Of a DNA stretch of 64,000 bases, positions 43,894 through 52,929 are shown one piece after another. The notes beneath the pieces were generated by a model, which saw only the letters and a program-made list of their open reading frames with translations, did no database searches and was not told the origin of the DNA. The DNA lies in the NCBI GenBank assembly GCA_005889275.1, contig VBFI01000049.1, positions 7,214-71,213 on the forward strand, read 5' to 3'. Within the stretch, counting starts at the first letter, position 1. Every line of letters begins with the position of its first letter. Source of the stretch: Chloroflexota bacterium. GTDB taxonomy: Bacteria; Chloroflexota; Limnocylindria; P2-11E. The translations under genes were made by a program, and so were the position numbers.

Positions 43894-44664
43894 ATGCTCA
43901 CGCTCTTTCAGAAGAGCCTGCTTGCCACGATCGCTCTCGGCGTTCTCCTCGTCGCGTTCGTGATCGCCGCGAAGGCGCCCGCACAGGCGACGACGATCGC
44001 GCCGGCCGTGCAGGTCCCGGTGAACGCGGTCGTCCCGCAGGGGATCGTCACGACCGGTGACGCGACGGTCCGCGTGAAGCCTGACGCCGCGATCGTCACG
44101 GTGGGCGCGGTCGTCCAGGGCGCCACGGCGGACGAGGCCCAGGCGCTCCTGTCCGACCGGATCGCGAAGGTGCTGGACCGGGCGAAGGTGCTCGCGATCG
44201 CCGACGGCGATACGAAGACCGTGGCGTATCGCATCGATCCGCAATACGCGTACGAGCAAGGCAAGGCGCCGCGCCTCGTCGGGTTCCAGGCGAACCAGCA
44301 GCTCGCGCTCACCCTCCACGGGACGGACGGCGTCGGCAAGGCGCTCGACACACTGGTGCAGAACGACGGGGCGACGACGGCGACCGTGCAGTTCACGCTC
44401 CTGGACGCGAAGGCGGCGCAGGCGAGCGCCCGCGAGCAGGCGATCCAGGACGCCCGGGGGAAGGCCATCGCCATGGCCAGGACCGCCGGCGTGCAGCTCG
44501 GCAAGGTCACGAGCGTCAGCGATCTGGTCTCGTCGCCCTCCTTCGACGCGTTCAAGGCCATGATCCCCGCGCCGGGTCCGCTCGGTCCGAGCGCCGCCGC
44601 TCAGCTGCCGACCGGCCAGCTGGACGTCGTCGTCCGCGTTCAGGTCCAGTTCGAGATCGGCTGA
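43894..44664 (+). CDS. SIMPL-domain protein (DUF541, BP26/OmpP-like), signal-anchored
   Basis: 256 aa, N-terminal TM, ...VQFTLLDAKAAQASAREQAIQDARGKAIAMARTAGVQLGKV.... Confidence 0.65.
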   Translation: MLTLFQKSLLATIALGVLLVAFVIAAKAPAQATTIAPAVQVPVNAVVPQGIVTTGDATVRVKPDAAIVTVGAVVQGATADEAQALLSDRIAKVLDRAKVLAIADGDTKTVAYRIDPQYAYEQGKAPRLVGFQANQQLALTLHGTDGVGKALDTLVQNDGATTATVQFTLLDAKAAQASAREQAIQDARGKAIAMARTAGVQLGKVTSVSDLVSSPSFDAFKAMIPAPGPLGPSAAAQLPTGQLDVVVRVQVQFEIG

Positions 44665-44907: not shown

Positions 44908-45795
44908 CTAGGTCTGCGCGCTGAAGATCACGAGCGCGCGGAGCGCGAGGACGCCGAGGAGCGCGAGCAGCGGCGCCGCGACCGGCGGCCAGCCGCGCAC
45001 GCGCGATGCGAGGAACGGCACGACGATGCCGGCGAGGACGACGATCCAGAGCAGCACCCAGATCCCGAGCACCTTGGTGAGCGACCCGGCGACCGCGACC
45101 GCGACGAGGAAGAGCACGATGAGAACGGCCTCGAGGACGACGAAGTAGCGGTCGGCCCGCTCCAGACGGTAGGCCGTGTCGAGGTCGACATCGCGGCGTG
45201 AGCGGGCGAGGAAGAGCAGCAGCGCCGCCGACCCCGAGAGCGCGGACGCGAGGAAGAGACCGCCCAGGACCCAGCCGGCGTCGCTCCACACGGCCTGGTT
45301 CGAGACCGCGAGCACCACACCGGTGTAGCCGCAGATGAAGAGGCCGAGCGCGGTCCCGATCACCCCCCAGATCGTCGCCGGCAAGCCGCGGATCGCGCTT
45401 GCGAGCGACGACGCTCCGCGGATCCGTCCTGTCTCGGCCAGCGCCCCGAGGAACGAGACGAACGAGAACAGCCCGAACGCGAGCAGCGCCCACGACCCGA
45501 GGCTCATCGGGCTCCACGGTTTGAACACGAGCCCCCCTCCGCTCGTGTCGACGAGCATGTGATAGAAGAGGGTGGGCTGGCCGAGGTCGAGCGTCAGGAA
45601 GATCGGACACGGAATGAGCGCGATGAAGCTCGCGATGTACGCGATCTGGGAGGCTCGGCGGTCGCGCGGATCGCCGGCGAGGCGGAGGAGCGTGCCGATC
45701 GCGTAGCTCCCACCCGAAAGACCGCCAAAGAAGAAGTACGCGAGGATCCACCACTGCCACTCGGGTGGTGCCGCGAAGTGCTCAGCGGGGTTCAC
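44908..45795 (-). CDS. Formate dehydrogenase membrane anchor, NrfD/PsrC family
   Basis: 295 aa, about 8 predicted TM helices; overlaps the fdhB stop. Confidence 0.7.
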   Translation of the reverse strand: MNPAEHFAAPPEWQWWILAYFFFGGLSGGSYAIGTLLRLAGDPRDRRASQIAYIASFIALIPCPIFLTLDLGQPTLFYHMLVDTSGGGLVFKPWSPMSLGSWALLAFGLFSFVSFLGALAETGRIRGASSLASAIRGLPATIWGVIGTALGLFICGYTGVVLAVSNQAVWSDAGWVLGGLFLASALSGSAALLLFLARSRRDVDLDTAYRLERADRYFVVLEAVLIVLFLVAVAVAGSLTKVLGIWVLLWIVVLAGIVVPFLASRVRGWPPVAAPLLALLGVLALRALVIFSAQT

Positions 45796-46634
45796 GAGCG
45801 GCCCGTCGTCGTGTGGTCGGTCCCGCTCATCCGCCCGCTGCGGAAGGCGACAAGCCCCGCGATGAGGCCGAGGACCGCGGTCGCGACGCCGCCGACGTAT
45901 CCCGGCAGGTTGTTGCGGCTCGGGAGCGTCGCATTGGCCTCGTTCGGGAGCTTGTAGACCTCGGGCTTGTCCATCAGGAGGAAGAACGCGTTGAGCCCGC
46001 CGTACACCTTGGTGTCACGGCCGTAGAGCTGCGCCTTCTGATAGCCCGCCTTCTGAAGCGCGGCGAGGCGATCGTCGGCGACCGCGTGCAGGTCATCGAT
46101 GTATCCGAACTTGATCGACTCGGTCGGGCACGCCTTCGCGCACGCCGGCTGGAGCCCGCCCTGCAGGCGGTCGTAGCAGAGCGTGCATTTCTGCGCGACC
46201 CCGGCCTGCTCGTTGAAGCCGATCACGCCGTACGGGCACGCCGAGATGCAGTTGCGGCAGCCGTTGCAGACGTCGGGCTGGATGAACACGGTGTCGAACT
46301 CGGTGCGCACGATCGCGTTCGTCGGGCAGACCTCGAGGCACGACGCCTCCTTACAGTGCTTGCAGACGTCGCTCATCATCAGCCAGGCCTGCCCGCCGGC
46401 GATCGGGGTGGGTGTCGCGATGGTTCCCTTGTTGTCGGGGATCTGCTCGATGAACTGCACGTGCCGCCAGTTCTGCGCGTCCAGCTGGCCGGTGTTGTCG
46501 TACGAATCGGCCGTGAACGTCGCCGGATCCCCCTTGAGCTGATTCCATTCCTTGCACGCGACCTCGCACGCCTTGCAGCCGATACAGATCGACGTGTCGG
46601 TGAAGAATCCGAGCGGCTTCTCCTGCCAGGCCAT
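45792..46634 (-). CDS. fdhB: Formate dehydrogenase iron-sulfur (4x[4Fe-4S]) subunit, FdnH/FdoH-like, C-terminal TM
   Basis: 280 aa, CIGCKACEVAC...CKHCKEASCLEVCP...CNGCRNCISACP...CTLCYDRLQGGLQPACAKACP. Confidence 0.88.
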   Translation of the reverse strand: MAWQEKPLGFFTDTSICIGCKACEVACKEWNQLKGDPATFTADSYDNTGQLDAQNWRHVQFIEQIPDNKGTIATPTPIAGGQAWLMMSDVCKHCKEASCLEVCPTNAIVRTEFDTVFIQPDVCNGCRNCISACPYGVIGFNEQAGVAQKCTLCYDRLQGGLQPACAKACPTESIKFGYIDDLHAVADDRLAALQKAGYQKAQLYGRDTKVYGGLNAFFLLMDKPEVYKLPNEANATLPSRNNLPGYVGGVATAVLGLIAGLVAFRSGRMSGTDHTTTGRS

Positions 46635-46638
46635 CTTC

Positions 46639-47427
46639 CTAGAACCCCATCAGGTTGCGCGAGATCTTCGAATATCCGCGCTCGGCGGCCGCGAGATCGA
46701 GCGGCAGCGCGACGAGCTCGTCGACGAGCGGAACGGCCCGCGGGTCCTTGCGCAGGTCGATGGTGAGCAGATAGCGGCGGCAGATCTCACACGCGTCGAT
46801 CCGCACGTGCGGAAAGTGATCGACGTCCGAGAGGATCGGCATCTTCGCGCCGGCCGTCTCACCGCACGACGCGCAGGTCATACGGCTCAACACCCATTCA
46901 CCCGCGCAGCGCGAGCAGACCAAAGTTCTCTGGCCGGTGAGGAGCGCCTCGCCGGTGTCGGGAAAGAACGCGAGCTGCGGAAGCCCGCCGCAGCGCGGGC
47001 ACCGGCGGTCGTCGCTCTCGGCTGACCGGAGGGCCGCGGCCACCTCGGGAAGGGCCTCGAGGACCGGGGCGGCGGCCGCCCGCGCGAGGAAGGTGTCGGT
47101 CCCGCCCTGCTGCTCGCCGCGAAGCCACGCCTCCACGATGCCCTCGAGGTCGCCCTCGGCGAACCGCAGCAACACCGCCTCGCGGAGCGTTTCCGTCCCG
47201 GCCGCGACGGCGGCCTCCATGACACCGGGCAGGGCGACCCGCACGGCGTACGCGGCGATCTCCTCGGCGCCGGGGCCGTCCGCGAGCGCGCGCTCGAAGG
47301 CACGCTCCTGCGCGTCCACGACCGCGAGGTAGAGCCGCAGCGGCCCCTCGGCGAAGTCGTATCGCGCGCCGAGCTCGCGTGCGCGCTCGCGGCGCTCGGC
47401 ATGCACGGTCGAAGCGAGCAGCGCCAT
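46639..47427 (-). CDS. fdhE: Formate dehydrogenase accessory protein FdhE
   Basis: 262 aa, MALLASTVHAERRER..., four CxxC motifs (RCPRCGG, CSRCAGEW, CASCGE, CEICRRY). The ATG overlaps the fdhA stop. Confidence 0.85.
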   Translation of the reverse strand: MALLASTVHAERRERARELGARYDFAEGPLRLYLAVVDAQERAFERALADGPGAEEIAAYAVRVALPGVMEAAVAAGTETLREAVLLRFAEGDLEGIVEAWLRGEQQGGTDTFLARAAAAPVLEALPEVAAALRSAESDDRRCPRCGGLPQLAFFPDTGEALLTGQRTLVCSRCAGEWVLSRMTCASCGETAGAKMPILSDVDHFPHVRIDACEICRRYLLTIDLRKDPRAVPLVDELVALPLDLAAAERGYSKISRNLMGF

Positions 47428-50400
47428 CAGATCTTCTCGATGTTCACGAGGAACGCCTTGAACTCGGGCGTCCTCGCTCCGACATCGCCGACGAACGGCG
47501 TGAGCGCGTTCGCGAGCCAGTACTTCGAGCGTTCGGGATTCTGCTCGGCGGAGACGCCGATGAATCCCCAGTGGATGGGGATGCCGATGTGGTAGACGGT
47601 CTTGTTGCCGGCGAGGGTCATCGGCCCGAGACGCTTGGTGACGAGGGCGGCCACCTCGATCTTGCCGCGCTCGCTGAACACCCGCACGCGGTCGCCGTTC
47701 TTGATGCCTTTCTCGTTCGCCAGCTCCTCGGGGATCTCGACGAAGGCCTGCGGCTGCAACCCGACGAGCAGCGGGACGTGCTGCGTCACGTAGTGCTCGT
47801 GCTCGGTGAGGCGGTAGCTCGTCGCGACGTACGGGTACTTGTCCACCTTGCCGAAGCGGTTCGGCCTGCCGGCGGCCTGGTCGTAGAGGAACACGACCGG
47901 ATCCTCCGACTGGCTCGGGTGGAGCGGGTTCGCTATCGGCGCCTCGACCGGCTCGTAGTGCTCCGGGATCGGACCGTCGAGCATCGCGGAGGAGAAGAGC
48001 CTGCCGACCCCCTCCCCGTTCATGATGAAGGGGTTCCACGACGCGGGATCCTTGGGGTTCATCGTCGCCGGGTAGTCCGGCACGTCGCCGGTCCACGTCG
48101 TGCCGTTCCACTGGATGCCGGGGCGCTTGGGGTCCCACGGCTTGCCGTCGGAGTCGGCGGACGCGCGGTTGTACATGACCCGTCGGTTGAGCGGCCAGCT
48201 CCAAGCCCACATCGGGTAGAAGCCCATCCCCGTGGGATCGTTCTTCGCCGGATCCTGAATGCCGTTCCGGCGCTTGCTCAGATTTCCGTCCTCGGTGTAG
48301 CTCCCCGTATAGATCCAGTCACCGGCGGTCGTGGTGCCGTCGGCCTTGAGGTTCGCGAAGCTCGACATCTGCTTTCCGGTCGCGAGGTCCTTGCCGTTGA
48401 TCTCCTTGGCGATCTCGTCCAGCTCGGGCTTCTTGGGATCCTTGTACCAATCGGTGGTCATCGCGTTGATCGCGTCCGGAAACTTCCCGCCCTGCTGCTT
48501 GTAGAGGCTCTTCACTCGGTCGAAGAGGTCCGCGAAGATCCAGTGGTCGTGCTGCGCCTGGCCTTCGGGCGGGATCACCTGCTCCTTCCACTGCATCCAC
48601 CGGCCGCTGTTCACGAAGGAGCCATCCTTCTCGATCCAATGCGTCGTCGGGAGCATGAAGACCTCGGTCTGAATCTTCGAGGGGTCCATGTCCGGGCCGT
48701 GCCAGAACTCCGAGCTCGTCGTCGGCAGCGGATCCATGATCACGAGCCACTTGAGGTTGGAGAGCGCCTGCAGCACCTGGTTCACGTCCGGACCGATGCT
48801 CGTCGCGGTCATGCCGTTCAGGATCAGGCCCTCCATCTTGCCCTTGAGCGCCTGGTCGTAGATCGACATCCATGACGAGTTCGTCGCCGGCTTGGGGATG
48901 AAGTTGAAGGCGTACTCGTTGTCCTTCGTGGCCGCGGCACCGTACCAGCCCTTCAGCAAGCTGACCATGAAGTTGCGGTAGTTGAGGCCGAAGAAGTTCC
49001 ACGAGTTCGGGTCGCTCTTCACCGGCGCGCTCTGCCGGACGTAGTCGTCCAGGTTCTTCTGGCCGGGCGCGGGAATGCGGAGGTATCCCGGCAGGATCTC
49101 CCAGCTGATCGCGTGATCGGTGTTGCCCTGGATGTTCGCGTGGCCGCGCTCCGCGTTCATGCCGCCGCCGGGCCGGCCGATGTTCCCGAGGAGGAGCTGC
49201 AGCACCGCGCCCGAGCGGATGAGCTGCCCGCCGGTGGTGTGGTGCGTGAGGCCGACGGCGTACACGATCGTCATGACCTTGTCGGGCCTGCCCATCTCGC
49301 CGACGATCTTCGCGACCTGCAGGAACTGATCGGCGGGAATCCCGGTGATGCTCGCGACCATGTCCGGCGTGTAACGCGAGTAGTGCTTCTTGAGGAGCTG
49401 GAAGACCGAGCGCGGGTCCTGGAGGGTCATGTCGCGCTTGGCGAAGCCGGTCTGCGTCGTCGCCGGCCCCTCGACCTGTCCTCCCGCCTGCGCCGGCGGC
49501 GCGGTGAGCTCGTACGCCCACGTCGAGAGGTCGTAGGAGCGGGTCGCCGGGTTGTATCCGGAGAAGAGTCCGTCCTTGAAGTCGAAGCCCTCCTTCACGA
49601 TGAAGGAAGCGTTCGTGTAGTTCTTCACGTAGTCCTCGTGGTAGAGCGTGTTCTGGAGGACGTAGTTGATGAGCCCACCGAAGTAGGCGACGTCGGTCCC
49701 CGTGCGGATGCGCAGGTACATGTCCGACATCGCCGAGGTCCGCGTGTAGCGCGGATCCGCGTGGATGATCTTCGCGCCGCCGCCCGCCCCCGGGCCCTTC
49801 GTCGGGTCCAGCTTCGCCTTCACGAACCACTGGAACCCGACGGGGTGCGCTTCCGCCGGATTCGCCCCGTTGATGAGGATGACGTCGGCGTGCTTGATGT
49901 CGCGCCAGTGGTTCGTCATCGCTCCCCGTCCGAACGTGGCGGCCAAACTGACCACCGTTGGGCCGTGTCAGACCCGGGCTTGCTGCTCGATGTGCACGAC
50001 GCCGAGCGTCCGCATCAGCTTGGTCGCGAAGTAGCCCTCTTCGCTGCTGAACGCGGCGCCGCCGGCGAAGGCGACCCCCTCGGTGCGATTCACAGTGTTG
50101 CCGTTCGCGTCCTGCGCGACGAACGTGTTGTCGCGCGACGCCTTTAGGTTCTGGGCGATCTTGTCGAGCATGAAGTCCCAGCTCTTCTCTTCCCACTTCG
50201 CGCTGCCCGGGGCTCGGTAGAGCGGTTTCTCGACGCGGCGCGAGCTCGTCGCCAGCTGCATCGCCGTCGCGCCTTTCGGGCAAAGGCGTCCCTCGTTGAC
50301 CGGGCTGTCCGGGTCGCCTTCGATCTGCAGCAGCTGGGTCGTGCCGTTCGCCTGCTTCGTGTAGGCGATGAGCGCGCAGCCAACGGCGCAGTACGGGCAG

Positions 50401-50558
50401 ACCGAGTGGACTTCCTTCGCGCCCGCGATCCGCAGCTCGAGCGTGCGTCGCTTGACGCTTTTGAGGTCGAATCCAAGGGGGTTCGCGATGGGGACCGCCA
50501 GACCGGCTGCGCCGGCGGCACCGAGCTTCAGGAACTCACGTCGCGTGATTTCCGCCAT
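47427..50558 (-). CDS. fdhA: Formate dehydrogenase catalytic (molybdopterin) subunit, Tat-exported, selenocysteine-containing (in-frame TGA at 49970-49968)
   Basis: The track splits this into two ORFs (49968-50591 and 47427-49955) joined by one TGA. The junction reads ...HIEQQARV-U-HGPTVVSLAATFGRGAMTNHW..., matching E. coli FdnG ...QARV-U-HGPTVASLAPTFGRGAMTNHW. Tat motif TRREFLKLGAAGAAGLA. Start is probably MAEITRREFL (50558) or the GTG at 50591. Confidence 0.88.
49935..49967 (-). other. Candidate SECIS-like hairpin immediately 3' of the Sec UGA in fdhA
   Basis: mRNA: UGA CAC GGCCCAAC GGUGGUCA GUUUGGCC GCC; an 8-bp stem with one mismatch, starting 4 nt after the UGA. Confidence 0.3.
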
Positions 50559-50603
50559 CGGATCGGTCACTCGTTCTACTCCGATGCGCACACCCTCGCA
50601 AGC

Positions 50604-50909
50604 GTGGCGCTACCGTTTCGCCTGGTGAACGAGTTCTTCGGCGCGCTGGGCAGGCGGTGGCGCGACGGGGCCGAGCGCCGCGGCGCGAAGATCGAAGAGC
50701 CGGACCTCGATCCGTCGGTCGCGGCCGAACTCCTCGAGCTCGCACGGGTCGCGGCGCACACGAAGGAGCGCCGCTTCGCCCCGCTGGCGACGTACACGGC
50801 CGGGATCGCCGCGGAGCGCCTGCGCGCCGCGAACGGAGCCGACGCCGCGTCGATCGCGGCGTACATCCGCGAGGTGCGTGAGGAGCTCGAGCGCGAGACG
50901 CCCGGATAG
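50604..50909 (+). CDS. Small hypothetical protein divergent from fdhA
   Basis: GTG at 50604; VALPFRLVNEFFGALGRRWRDGAERRGAKIEEPDLDPSVAAELLELARVAAHTKERRFAPLATYTAGIAAERL.... Followed by a weak hairpin plus T-run. The earlier part of the track ORF is antisense to fdhA. Confidence 0.3.
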   Translation: MALPFRLVNEFFGALGRRWRDGAERRGAKIEEPDLDPSVAAELLELARVAAHTKERRFAPLATYTAGIAAERLRAANGADAASIAAYIREVREELERETPG

Positions 50910-50936
50910 GCCAATTTCGGCCTGTTTTGGCCCCCG
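50910..50936 (+). terminator. Weak terminator-like hairpin plus T-tract after the small plus-strand ORF
   Basis: ggccaatttcggcc tgtttt ggcc (4-bp GC stem, 6-nt loop, TGTTTT). Confidence 0.2.
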
Positions 50937-50975
50937 CTACCGAACCGAAATCTCCGCCAGATACGCTCCTCGGCC

Positions 50976-51167
50976 ATGTCGTCGAATAACCGCCCGGTGG
51001 CCGATTTCGTCCGCGACGACGCGGGCGCGGGCCTGATCGAGTACGCGCTCATCCTGAGCATCGTCTCGGTGGCGGCGATCCTCGCGATGGTCGTGATGAA
51101 GGACCAGCTGACCTCGTACTTCAGCAACATCGGCAACACCGTGGGGCAGTACCCGGGGGGTCCCTAG
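50976..51167 (+). CDS. flp: Flp/Fap family type IVb pilin (orphan)
   Basis: 63 aa, MSSNNRPVADFVRDDAGAGLIEYALILSIVSVAAILAMVV; canonical Flp G-x4-EY motif followed by a hydrophobic segment. Confidence 0.75.
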   Translation: MSSNNRPVADFVRDDAGAGLIEYALILSIVSVAAILAMVVMKDQLTSYFSNIGNTVGQYPGGP

Positions 51168-52093
51168 CCTCCACCGAGCGCGCCGCGAAGCGCGGCGCCC
51201 GCATCGTCGTACGCCTGGGCCGCCTCAGCAAGAAGATTCGGAAACGCCATGAAGCCGTGGAACATCCCGCGGTACCGCTTCGCCGTCGCCGAGATCCCGA
51301 CCTCGCGCAGCTTCGCCGCGTAGGCTTCGCCGTCGTCGCGGAGCGGATCGCACTCGGCGGTGATGACGAGGGCGGGCGGCATCCCGCGGAGGTCGGCCCG
51401 CAAGACCGACGCGTAGGGATCGTCGAGATCGGCGGGGGTGCGGATGTAGTGCTCGGCGTACCACTCCATGTCGGCCCTGGTGAGGCCGAAGCCGGTCGCG
51501 AACTCGTCGTGTGAGGCCGCGCCGTACCGCAGATCGGTCACCGGCACGGTGAGGAGCTGGAACGCGACCCTCGGTCCGCCTCGGTCGCGCGCGACGAGCG
51601 CCGCCGCGGCCGCGAGGTTCGCGCCCGCGCTCGAGCCGCCGACGGCGACGCGGGCAGCGTCGATCCCGAGCTCCGCCGCGTGATCGGCGACCCACCGCAC
51701 GGCGGCGTACGCATCCTCGACCGGCCCTGGGAACTTCGCCTCGGGAGCCAGGCGGTAGTCCACCGAGACGACGACGCACCGGCCGCGGTTCGCGAGCGCG
51801 CGGCACGGCTCGTCCGCCTCGTCGATCGATCCGATGACCCAGCCGCCGCCGTGGAAGTACACGAGGGCCGCGCCACTCGCGTTCTGCGGCCGGTAGATGC
51901 GCAGCGCGAGCGGGCCACCGGGGCCGGTGATGCTCTGAGCGATCACGCTCTCGACGGCCTCCGGTGCCGCCGCGAGCGGGACGGGGACGCCCCTCGCCTG
52001 GGCGGGGGTCATCGATGAATAGCGTGGCCGCGCGGCGATCTGCTCGACGATCGCGCGGACGACCGGGTGCAGGCGATCCTGGGTGACCGCCAT
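51164..52093 (-). CDS. Alpha/beta hydrolase, HSL-family esterase/lipase
   Basis: 309 aa, ...ALVYFHGGGWVIGSIDEAD...VAVGGSSAGANLAA... (HGGG oxyanion motif and GxSxG nucleophile elbow). Confidence 0.8.
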   Translation of the reverse strand: MAVTQDRLHPVVRAIVEQIAARPRYSSMTPAQARGVPVPLAAAPEAVESVIAQSITGPGGPLALRIYRPQNASGAALVYFHGGGWVIGSIDEADEPCRALANRGRCVVVSVDYRLAPEAKFPGPVEDAYAAVRWVADHAAELGIDAARVAVGGSSAGANLAAAAALVARDRGGPRVAFQLLTVPVTDLRYGAASHDEFATGFGLTRADMEWYAEHYIRTPADLDDPYASVLRADLRGMPPALVITAECDPLRDDGEAYAAKLREVGISATAKRYRGMFHGFMAFPNLLAEAAQAYDDAGAALRGALGGG

Positions 52094-52929
52094 CAGTGTC
52101 CGATCCGTTCGGGCGACGTGTACACGTTGAAGCGATCATCGCGCAGGAAGCCGACGAGCGTCATGCCGAAACGCTCGGCGGTGGCGACGGCGAGGCTCGA
52201 GGGCGCCCCCACGGCGGCGAGGATCGGGATGCCCGCGGCGACCGCCTTCTGCACGACCTCGTAGCCCGCGCGTCCGCTCACCGCCAGGACGGCGCCGCGC
52301 AGCGGGACGCGTCCGTCCAGGAGCGCGCGGCCGACCACCTTGTCGACCGCGTTGTGCCGTCCGATGTCCTCACGAAGGAGCTGAAGCTCGCCACGGTCGT
52401 CGAAGAGACCCGCCGCGTGCAGCCCGCCGGTGGTCTCGAAGAGGCGCTGCCGCTCGCGAAGCCGATCCGCGAGCGGCGGCAGGAGCGCCGCGTCCACGAG
52501 CGGGCCGGGCGCGAGCCGCGCGAAGTCGAGCGCGAGCGACTCCAGCGTCGTCGCGCCGCAAACCCCGCAGGCGGAGGTCGCGAGAAAGGATCGCTCGGGA
52601 CGCCGGCTCCCGTTCTCACGGACGTGGACGTCGACCTGGTTCGATTCGACGAGGTCGCCGCTGAGCGGCACCGCGGCCTCCCGCTCCTGGGCTTCGGCGC
52701 TGATGCGCACGCGCACGACGTCGTCGAGCGACCGAATCACCCGCTCCGCCCAGAGGAGACCGAGGGCGAGCTCGAGATCGTTTCCCGGGGTCCGCATCAC
52801 GATCGAAAGCGGCCGACCGTCCAGCGACAGCTGAAGCGGCTCCTCCGCCGCGACCTGGTCGCGGTCGTCGCGCCACTCGCCGGTTCGCCAGCGCGCGATG
52901 GTCACGGGCGGCGCCTGGGGCCGCGGCAT
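52093..52929 (-). CDS. fdhD: Formate dehydrogenase accessory sulfurtransferase FdhD
   Basis: 278 aa, ...SFLATSACGVCGATTLESL...EDIGRHNAVDKVVGRALLDG.... Confidence 0.85.
   Translation of the reverse strand: MPRPQAPPVTIARWRTGEWRDDRDQVAAEEPLQLSLDGRPLSIVMRTPGNDLELALGLLWAERVIRSLDDVVRVRISAEAQEREAAVPLSGDLVESNQVDVHVRENGSRRPERSFLATSACGVCGATTLESLALDFARLAPGPLVDAALLPPLADRLRERQRLFETTGGLHAAGLFDDRGELQLLREDIGRHNAVDKVVGRALLDGRVPLRGAVLAVSGRAGYEVVQKAVAAGIPILAAVGAPSSLAVATAERFGMTLVGFLRDDRFNVYTSPERIGH

Follow-up and report, generated by a model that had tools for sequence, protein, structure and literature searches.

Is a TGA triplet in the middle of an open gene a stop, a lesion or a selenocysteine codon? This question is raised by a minus-strand locus in a 64-kb stretch of DNA (hereafter the window, meaning the whole stretch analysed) from an uncultured soil Chloroflexota of the class Candidatus (Ca.) Limnocylindria. 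Two minus-strand open reading frames (ORFs), 49968-50591 and 47427-49955, share one frame, and their sole separator is the TGA at 49970-49968. An earlier note had joined the two into one formate dehydrogenase gene in which the TGA specifies selenocysteine (Sec) and is followed by a hairpin. We find that the two ORFs form a single gene of the FdnG family and that the TGA, codon 197, is very probably decoded as Sec through a selenocysteine insertion sequence (SECIS) inside the gene. The product would be a membrane-bound formate dehydrogenase of the FdnG/FdoG family, exported by the twin-arginine translocation (Tat) pathway.

One gene across an in-frame TGA

Translation across the TGA yields a product of 1043 amino acids (aa) that runs from ATG 50558 (MAEITRREFLK...) to the stop at 47427. 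This ATG, which opens the Tat signal, is most likely the true gene start, rather than GTG 50591, because the 196-aa N-terminal product in the gene calls of related contigs begins there. The read-through protein aligned over its full length with Escherichia coli FdnG (PDB 1KQF, chain 1kqf_A; E 8e-292), and the TGA fell on the Sec position of the E. coli enzyme, written X in that chain. The peptide that the earlier note had quoted around the TGA, ...QQARV*HGPTVVSLAATFGRGAMTNHW, occurs exactly in the translation, and across the Sec site the read-through product reads V-U-HGPTVVSLAATFGR. Also conserved relative to 1kqf_A are the U(X)-H pair, the N-terminal 4Fe-4S motif CxxCxxxC...C and the catalytic Arg (IR). 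The protein passed the NCBIfam equivalog TIGR01553 (formate dehydrogenase-N alpha) with 1282.3 bits against a cut-off of 814.2, covering profile positions 2-1009 of 1009, and it contains the Pfam domains Molybdop_Fe4S4, Molybdopterin and Molydop_binding. Its Tat signal, with the motif RREFLK, passed PF10518 (TAT_signal; 23.3 bits, cut-off 22.7). A shared frame and an alignment that runs from end to end thus bear out the joining of the two ORFs into one gene.

Automatic gene callers treat the locus differently: in every assembly and contig examined, they cut the gene into two products. If the TGA were a genuine stop, the enzyme would be split into a 196-aa Tat/Fe-S fragment and an 842-aa fragment initiated at GTG 49955. 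This GTG sits four codons past the TGA, and TGA is a common stop in the genome, ending 16 of the 35 Pfam-supported genes of the window. A split at this point, however, would delete the metal-ligand residue itself. Moreover, a plain stop should vary between TAA, TAG and TGA across phyla. We examined 86 related fdnG copies, comprising 80 GTDB species representatives and 6 copies that carry an FdhD identical to that of the window. The site codon was TGA in 86 of 86 copies, across several phyla; none had TAA, TAG or a Cys codon. The placement of a TGA on the single catalytic residue of a 1043-aa alignment, combined with its presence in every copy, is far more than chance could be expected to produce. 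Since TGA serves as the normal stop in 16 of 35 genes, recoding must be specific to this site, with no change of the genetic code.

The in-frame stop, in a window devoid of Sec machinery, could also mark a pseudogene created by a nonsense mutation. We compared the window with ~50 relatives and obtained a median pairwise ratio of nonsynonymous to synonymous substitution rates (dN/dS) of 0.185 upstream of the TGA (196 codons) and 0.189 downstream (~840 codons). Translation in this frame therefore extends over both parts, and both are under purifying selection. A decaying gene would also be hard to reconcile with the identical TGA in 80 species-level representatives and with an operon and accessory genes that are intact. 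TGA conservation and dN/dS effectively refute the pseudogene, which we regard as extremely unlikely and as the least probable of the explanations weighed here.

An in-frame TGA scan of the window identified the fdnG site as the only TGA junction that unites two halves of one homologous protein. Two other junctions were rejected as recoding candidates: at 29453-29451, two adjacent genes share a frame, and the TGA at 44664-44662 serves a SIMPL-domain gene (43894-44664) as its ordinary stop, with an unannotated open frame behind it.

Where do the relatives of this gene reside? Soil-metagenome scaffolds of the CRIT18-1 series and the metagenome-assembled genome (MAG) GCA_005889415.1 encode an FdhD identical to that of the window. 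Among GTDB species representatives, the nearest FdnG proteins (84-89% identity) come from MAGs that bear the name Ca. Limnocylindria or Chloroflexota. In tetranucleotide composition, the window correlates at 0.995 with the nearest Limnocylindria/Chloroflexota fdnG loci, versus 0.93 with Dormibacterota-type loci.

Two features of the relatives stand on their own. The FdnG of one scaffold (L001) is 13 aa shorter 3' of the Sec codon (833 versus 846 codons) and otherwise protein-identical, a strain-level indel. FdnG proteins of 73-78% identity (L033-L086), with a near-invariant UGA-SECIS stretch, occur in MAGs assigned to Dormibacterota, Methylomirabilota, Eisenbacteria, Verrucomicrobiia, Gemmatimonadales, Bacillota, Thermoanaerobaculales and Saccharimonadales. 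This spread across phyla could reflect strong conservation, inter-phylum transfer or mis-binned contigs.

A conserved hairpin downstream of the UGA

We searched for a conserved stem in an alignment of 51 distinct 72-nucleotide (nt) orthologous sequences, which is free of indels (column c is window position 49977-c). Columns 21-28 pair with columns 32-39 (49956-49938) in 99% of cells. The hairpin consists of a 5' arm GGUGGUCA (49956-49949), a GUU loop (49948-46) and a 3' arm UGGCCGCC (49945-38); its stem begins 11 nt and its loop G (49948) lies 20 nt after the UGA. Two pairs show compensatory changes: pair 24-36 switches from G-C to C-G in nine sequences and pair 21-39 from G-C to A-U in one. 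None of 500 shuffles matched the covariation of this stem, and stems slid by 1-3 columns pair in at most 62%. The minimum-energy fold of the 48 nt from the UGA also contains this hairpin (-12.2 kcal/mol). Bacterial SECIS elements generally have a stem of 6-8 bp and a conserved loop G ~20 nt downstream of the UGA (PMC4605307), and the hairpin has this geometry: an 8-bp stem, a loop G at +20 and a location just 3' of the in-frame UGA.

The same stretch is constrained at synonymous sites. Synonymous entropy at 4-fold sites averaged 0.68 over codons +1 to +11, versus 1.16 for the gene, and was as low in 0.6% of sliding windows. Rare A/T-ending codons (AGT, TTG) are retained here despite a G+C content of ~94% at the third codon positions of the gene. 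These results also speak against the split enzyme: the four codons from TGA to GTG and the RNA that follows are synonymously conserved and contain compensatory pairs, a pattern that suits a SECIS but not an intergenic junction.

The earlier note had drawn a different hairpin, GGCCCAAC/GGUGGUCA/GUUUGGCC, at 49964-49941, starting 3 nt after the UGA. That sequence is indeed present and forms seven of eight pairs, with a C.U mismatch, but the conserved stem sits 8 nt further 3'. Across the 51 sequences, 75% of the cells of the upstream hairpin pair; pair 13-36 is broken in nine sequences, 35 sequences do not form pair 18-31, and covariation does not rise above that of shuffles. Its supposed loop, GGUGGUCA, is actually the 5' arm of the conserved stem. 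On this comparative evidence, the predicted functional SECIS is the hairpin at 49956-49938, and the one at 49964-49941 is not.

A comparison with bacterial SECIS models, also proposed earlier, matched the region to Rfam RF01989 (SECIS_3) under permissive thresholds, with 60.3 bits (E 7e-14). A default Rfam scan of the window is empty because this score is just below the gathering score of 63. E. coli fdoG scored 84.3 bits on RF01989, and SECIS_3 is therefore the FdnG/FdoG-type element. A match of this kind is a further point against the split enzyme, which we now consider very improbable. Of 20 orthologous fdnG loci, only 1 reached the gathering score: the SECIS_3 variant of the whole soil clade is thus slightly divergent and escapes default annotation. 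We treat the window element, as far as its sequence tells, as a clade variant of SECIS_3 and not as a curated member.

The clade variant shares with SECIS_3 its position relative to the UGA, the apical stem and the G-U loop. The stem base is different: E. coli has G21-C38, G22-C37 and a bulged U23, whereas the soil clade has G21-C39, G22-C38 and a U23.G37 pair. The register is shifted because a Pro codon has become an Ala codon, with G in place of C at position 37, and the shift is backed by the one A-U compensatory change at 21-39. We rejected the unmodified SECIS_3 consensus pairing, in which 72% of cells pair and 22-37 (G-G) never forms, and adopted the shifted register instead. The stem of the E. 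coli fdhF SECIS, the classical element of bacteria, likewise starts 11 nt after the UGA; that element also lies within coding sequence and has a loop G-U ~20 nt after the UGA, yet it differs in sequence, and the window hairpin is without a clearly unpaired bulged U.

From the UGA to the end of the stem, the sequence is almost invariant in at least eight phylum-level groups, and the SelB proteins of Limnocylindria and Dormibacterota are 44% identical. It is conceivable, if rather doubtful, that the soil-clade SECIS is a distinct functional variant in which a U.G pair in a continuous 8-bp helix replaces the bulged U, read by SelB proteins as far apart as 44% identity. If true, this would point to movement of an fdnG-plus-SECIS module between phyla and to SelB recognition that is independent of the bulge.

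Taken together, full-length homology, TGA conservation, equal purifying selection on both sides and the match to an FdnG-type SECIS model support the original proposal of one FdnG-type selenoprotein gene whose UGA specifies Sec.

Selenocysteine machinery in the lineage

Does the lineage have the means to decode the UGA as Sec? The earlier note had expected the Sec machinery elsewhere in the genome, and part of it was recovered: Limnocylindria-type contigs and MAGs from the same soil study carry selA and selB, but selC and selD were not found in the loci searched. A tblastn search of the fdnG loci with E. coli SelA, SelB and SelD returned only IF-2, BipA and one SelD fusion. Used as a database query, E. 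coli SelA (99-100% identical to database entries) reached Enterobacteria only. A selA-selB operon reached via 50%-identity representatives (L088, MAG VBHO01) was set aside as Dormibacterota-type by its tetranucleotide signature, and not of the window lineage; two further stepping-stone finds (P0258 and P0260) belonged to two unrelated lineages.

We then scanned metagenome contigs for the SelA motif GDKLLGGPQ and ranked the resulting 120 loci by tetranucleotide similarity to Limnocylindria loci. One contig, L210 (r 0.989 to Limnocylindria loci), carries selA and selB. Its SelB retrieved GenBank proteins annotated as 'selenocysteine-specific translation elongation factor'; these come from Ca. 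Limnocylindria and, in the same soil study, from MAGs labelled 'Chloroflexi bacterium'. The gene order DAGK-selA-ridA-selB-peptidase M17 is found on VBIR01000182 and VBHL01000142, plus one further soil contig. Limnocylindria-type contigs with both genes are L210, L221 (VBIR01), L222 (VBHL01) and L223, and the tetranucleotide correlation of the contigs in this gene order with the window is 0.982-0.987. The L221 proteins pass their curated families: SelA passes TIGR00474 with 519 versus 268 bits, and SelB passes TIGR00475 with 330 versus 242 bits. Judged by these family matches and signatures, the lineage Ca. Limnocylindria has both selA and selB. A literature search for Limnocylindria together with selenocysteine found no papers.

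The selB genes have an unusual beginning. In three of the four Limnocylindria-type contigs (L210, 5054-7105(-); L221, 5271-7178(+); L223, 4855-6666(+)), the 51 open codons that precede the P-loop (GHVDHGK) include no ATG, GTG or TTG. In GenBank, the L221 selB is called from ATC (IATAGHVDHGK), and other callers give a 603-aa product without the P-loop. This pattern suggests a conserved AUC start of selB in the lineage, which would possibly keep SelB levels low.

The only SelD among the fdnG loci is encoded ~4 kb downstream of the fdh operon of a Methylomirabilota MAG (L042, 17031-19250(-)), where SelD (AIRS/AIRS_C) is fused to an N-terminal pyridine nucleotide-disulfide oxidoreductase domain. 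In another locus, L084, the 87 bases at 2800-2886 are all N and may have been masked.

Several observations weigh against decoding of the UGA as Sec. The window has no tRNA gene and no SelA, SelB or SelD domain in any ORF, and most relatives have no sel gene within 10 kb of fdnG. Neither the tRNA-Sec gene (selC) nor selD of the lineage was found in the window, the 86 fdnG loci or the selA-selB loci. ARAGORN, which detected both E. coli tRNA-Phe and selC as positive controls, found no tRNA gene in the 86 fdnG loci and the window (1.36 Mb) or in the selA-selB loci. The selA-selB contigs belong to sibling MAGs and not to the MAG carrying the genes of the window, as their accession blocks differ; an assignment of SelB to that MAG via protein accession blocks was rejected, because the blocks do not match. 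The RF01989 score falls 2.7 bits short of the gathering score. Finally, the whole 69-nt stretch folds no better than shuffles (z 0.27), a value that is uninformative because the coding region has 69% G+C.

The location of selA and selB in sibling MAGs, and not in the MAG carrying the genes of the window, is what would favor a selenium-free read-through of the UGA, in which Cys or Trp is inserted either after loss of the Sec genes or via a SelB-dependent Cys-tRNA(Sec). However, the lineage retains selA and selB, the SECIS is still under selection, and no ortholog has the Cys codon that would be expected once Sec had been abandoned. We judge selenium-free read-through to be highly unlikely. The split enzyme, the pseudogene and the selenium-free read-through each conflict with the conservation data, and even jointly they retain only a small probability.

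We thus favor decoding of the UGA as Sec, for which the source genome would have to carry selA, selB, selC and selD. The C-terminal winged-helix domains of SelB would bind the hairpin at 49956-49938, and SelB.GTP.Sec-tRNA(Sec) would enter the A site at the UGA, outcompeting release factor 2. Sec would then be inserted as the molybdenum/tungsten (Mo/W) cofactor ligand of a periplasm-facing formate dehydrogenase, from which electrons would pass to the 4Fe-4S subunit and on to an NrfD-type quinone-reducing anchor.

The fdnG operon and its meaning

In the operon, fdnG is followed by genes for an FdhE-like protein, a 4Fe-4S subunit and an NrfD-type anchor (44908-47427(-); Table 1). The start of the FdhE-like gene overlaps the fdnG stop by 1 nt. 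Pfam and NCBIfam profiles detected no cytochrome b (b556, FdnI-type) subunit in the operon. The window protein and E. coli FdnG/FdoG (1KQF, TIGR01553) have in common full-length homology, a Tat signal, the 4Fe-4S motif and a Sec-His pair that is UGA-encoded in E. coli and very probably so here. The two loci also share fdhD, an fdhE-type gene and a 4Fe-4S beta subunit. Beyond the host, an uncultured soil Chloroflexota and not E. coli, several differences stand out. The E. coli locus (fdhD / fdoG-fdoH-fdoI-fdhE) has a cytochrome b anchor, whereas the anchor of the window is NrfD/PsrC-type and not a b556 FdnI/FdoI. Unlike in the E. coli order, the fdhE-like gene of the window lies between the alpha and beta genes. 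Furthermore, the beta subunit (best match TIGR01582 FDH-beta, 167.7 bits, cut-off 334.7) and the FdhE-like protein (TIGR01562 FdhE, 67 bits, cut-off 188) remain under the curated NCBIfam cut-offs. By its profile matches, the catalytic subunit is a member of the FdnG family, whereas the predicted complex differs in architecture from E. coli FDH-N, because an NrfD-type gene (PF03916) takes the FdnI position and the operon has no cytochrome b gene.

The interval between fdhD and fdnG holds an Abhydrolase_3 (alpha/beta-hydrolase) gene, a small Flp/Fap pilin-like ORF and a DUF6457 ORF (50604-51167(+), 51164-52093(-)), an arrangement that is kept in the closest contigs.

Table 1. Features of the fdnG locus, in window positions
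Feature	Position	Strand	Evidence or remark
fdnG-type formate dehydrogenase alpha subunit	47427..50558	-	1043 codons + stop; codon 197 very probably Sec
In-frame UGA, very probably read as selenocysteine (Mo/W ligand, then His)	49968..49970	-	1kqf_A alignment, TGA conservation, dN/dS
Full match to Rfam RF01989 SECIS_3 (FdnG/FdoG type)	49915..49973	-	60.3 bits, E 7e-14, model positions 1-59/59
Predicted SECIS stem-loop, 8-bp stem GGUGGUCA/UGGCCGCC, loop GUU	49938..49956	-	Covariation, 51 sequences
FdhE-like accessory gene, C-terminal domain only	46639..47427	-	PF24860 FdhE_C on orthologous product
4Fe-4S beta subunit, FdnH-like	45792..46634	-	Fer4_11 + related Pfam families
NrfD/PsrC-type membrane anchor, replacing cytochrome b subunit FdnI	44908..45795	-	PF03916 NrfD, E 6e-17
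fdhD, sulfurtransferase maturing formate dehydrogenase	52093..52929	-	PF02634 E 3e-66; NF001943 278 bits, cut-off 269

Among the selenoprotein families of bacteria, formate dehydrogenase alpha is already the most widespread (PMC13326102). What the locus offers is a textbook mechanism in a new lineage, and mechanistic knowledge is unchanged. Its value for annotation is twofold: gene callers split the gene, and the SECIS of a whole soil clade is missed at the default Rfam threshold, which 1 of 20 loci passes. Recognition of a single Sec enzyme would give a respiratory formate dehydrogenase of abundant soil Chloroflexota its catalytic subunit back. It would also imply that these soil Chloroflexota require selenium, and Ca. 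Limnocylindria would join the lineages that use Sec.

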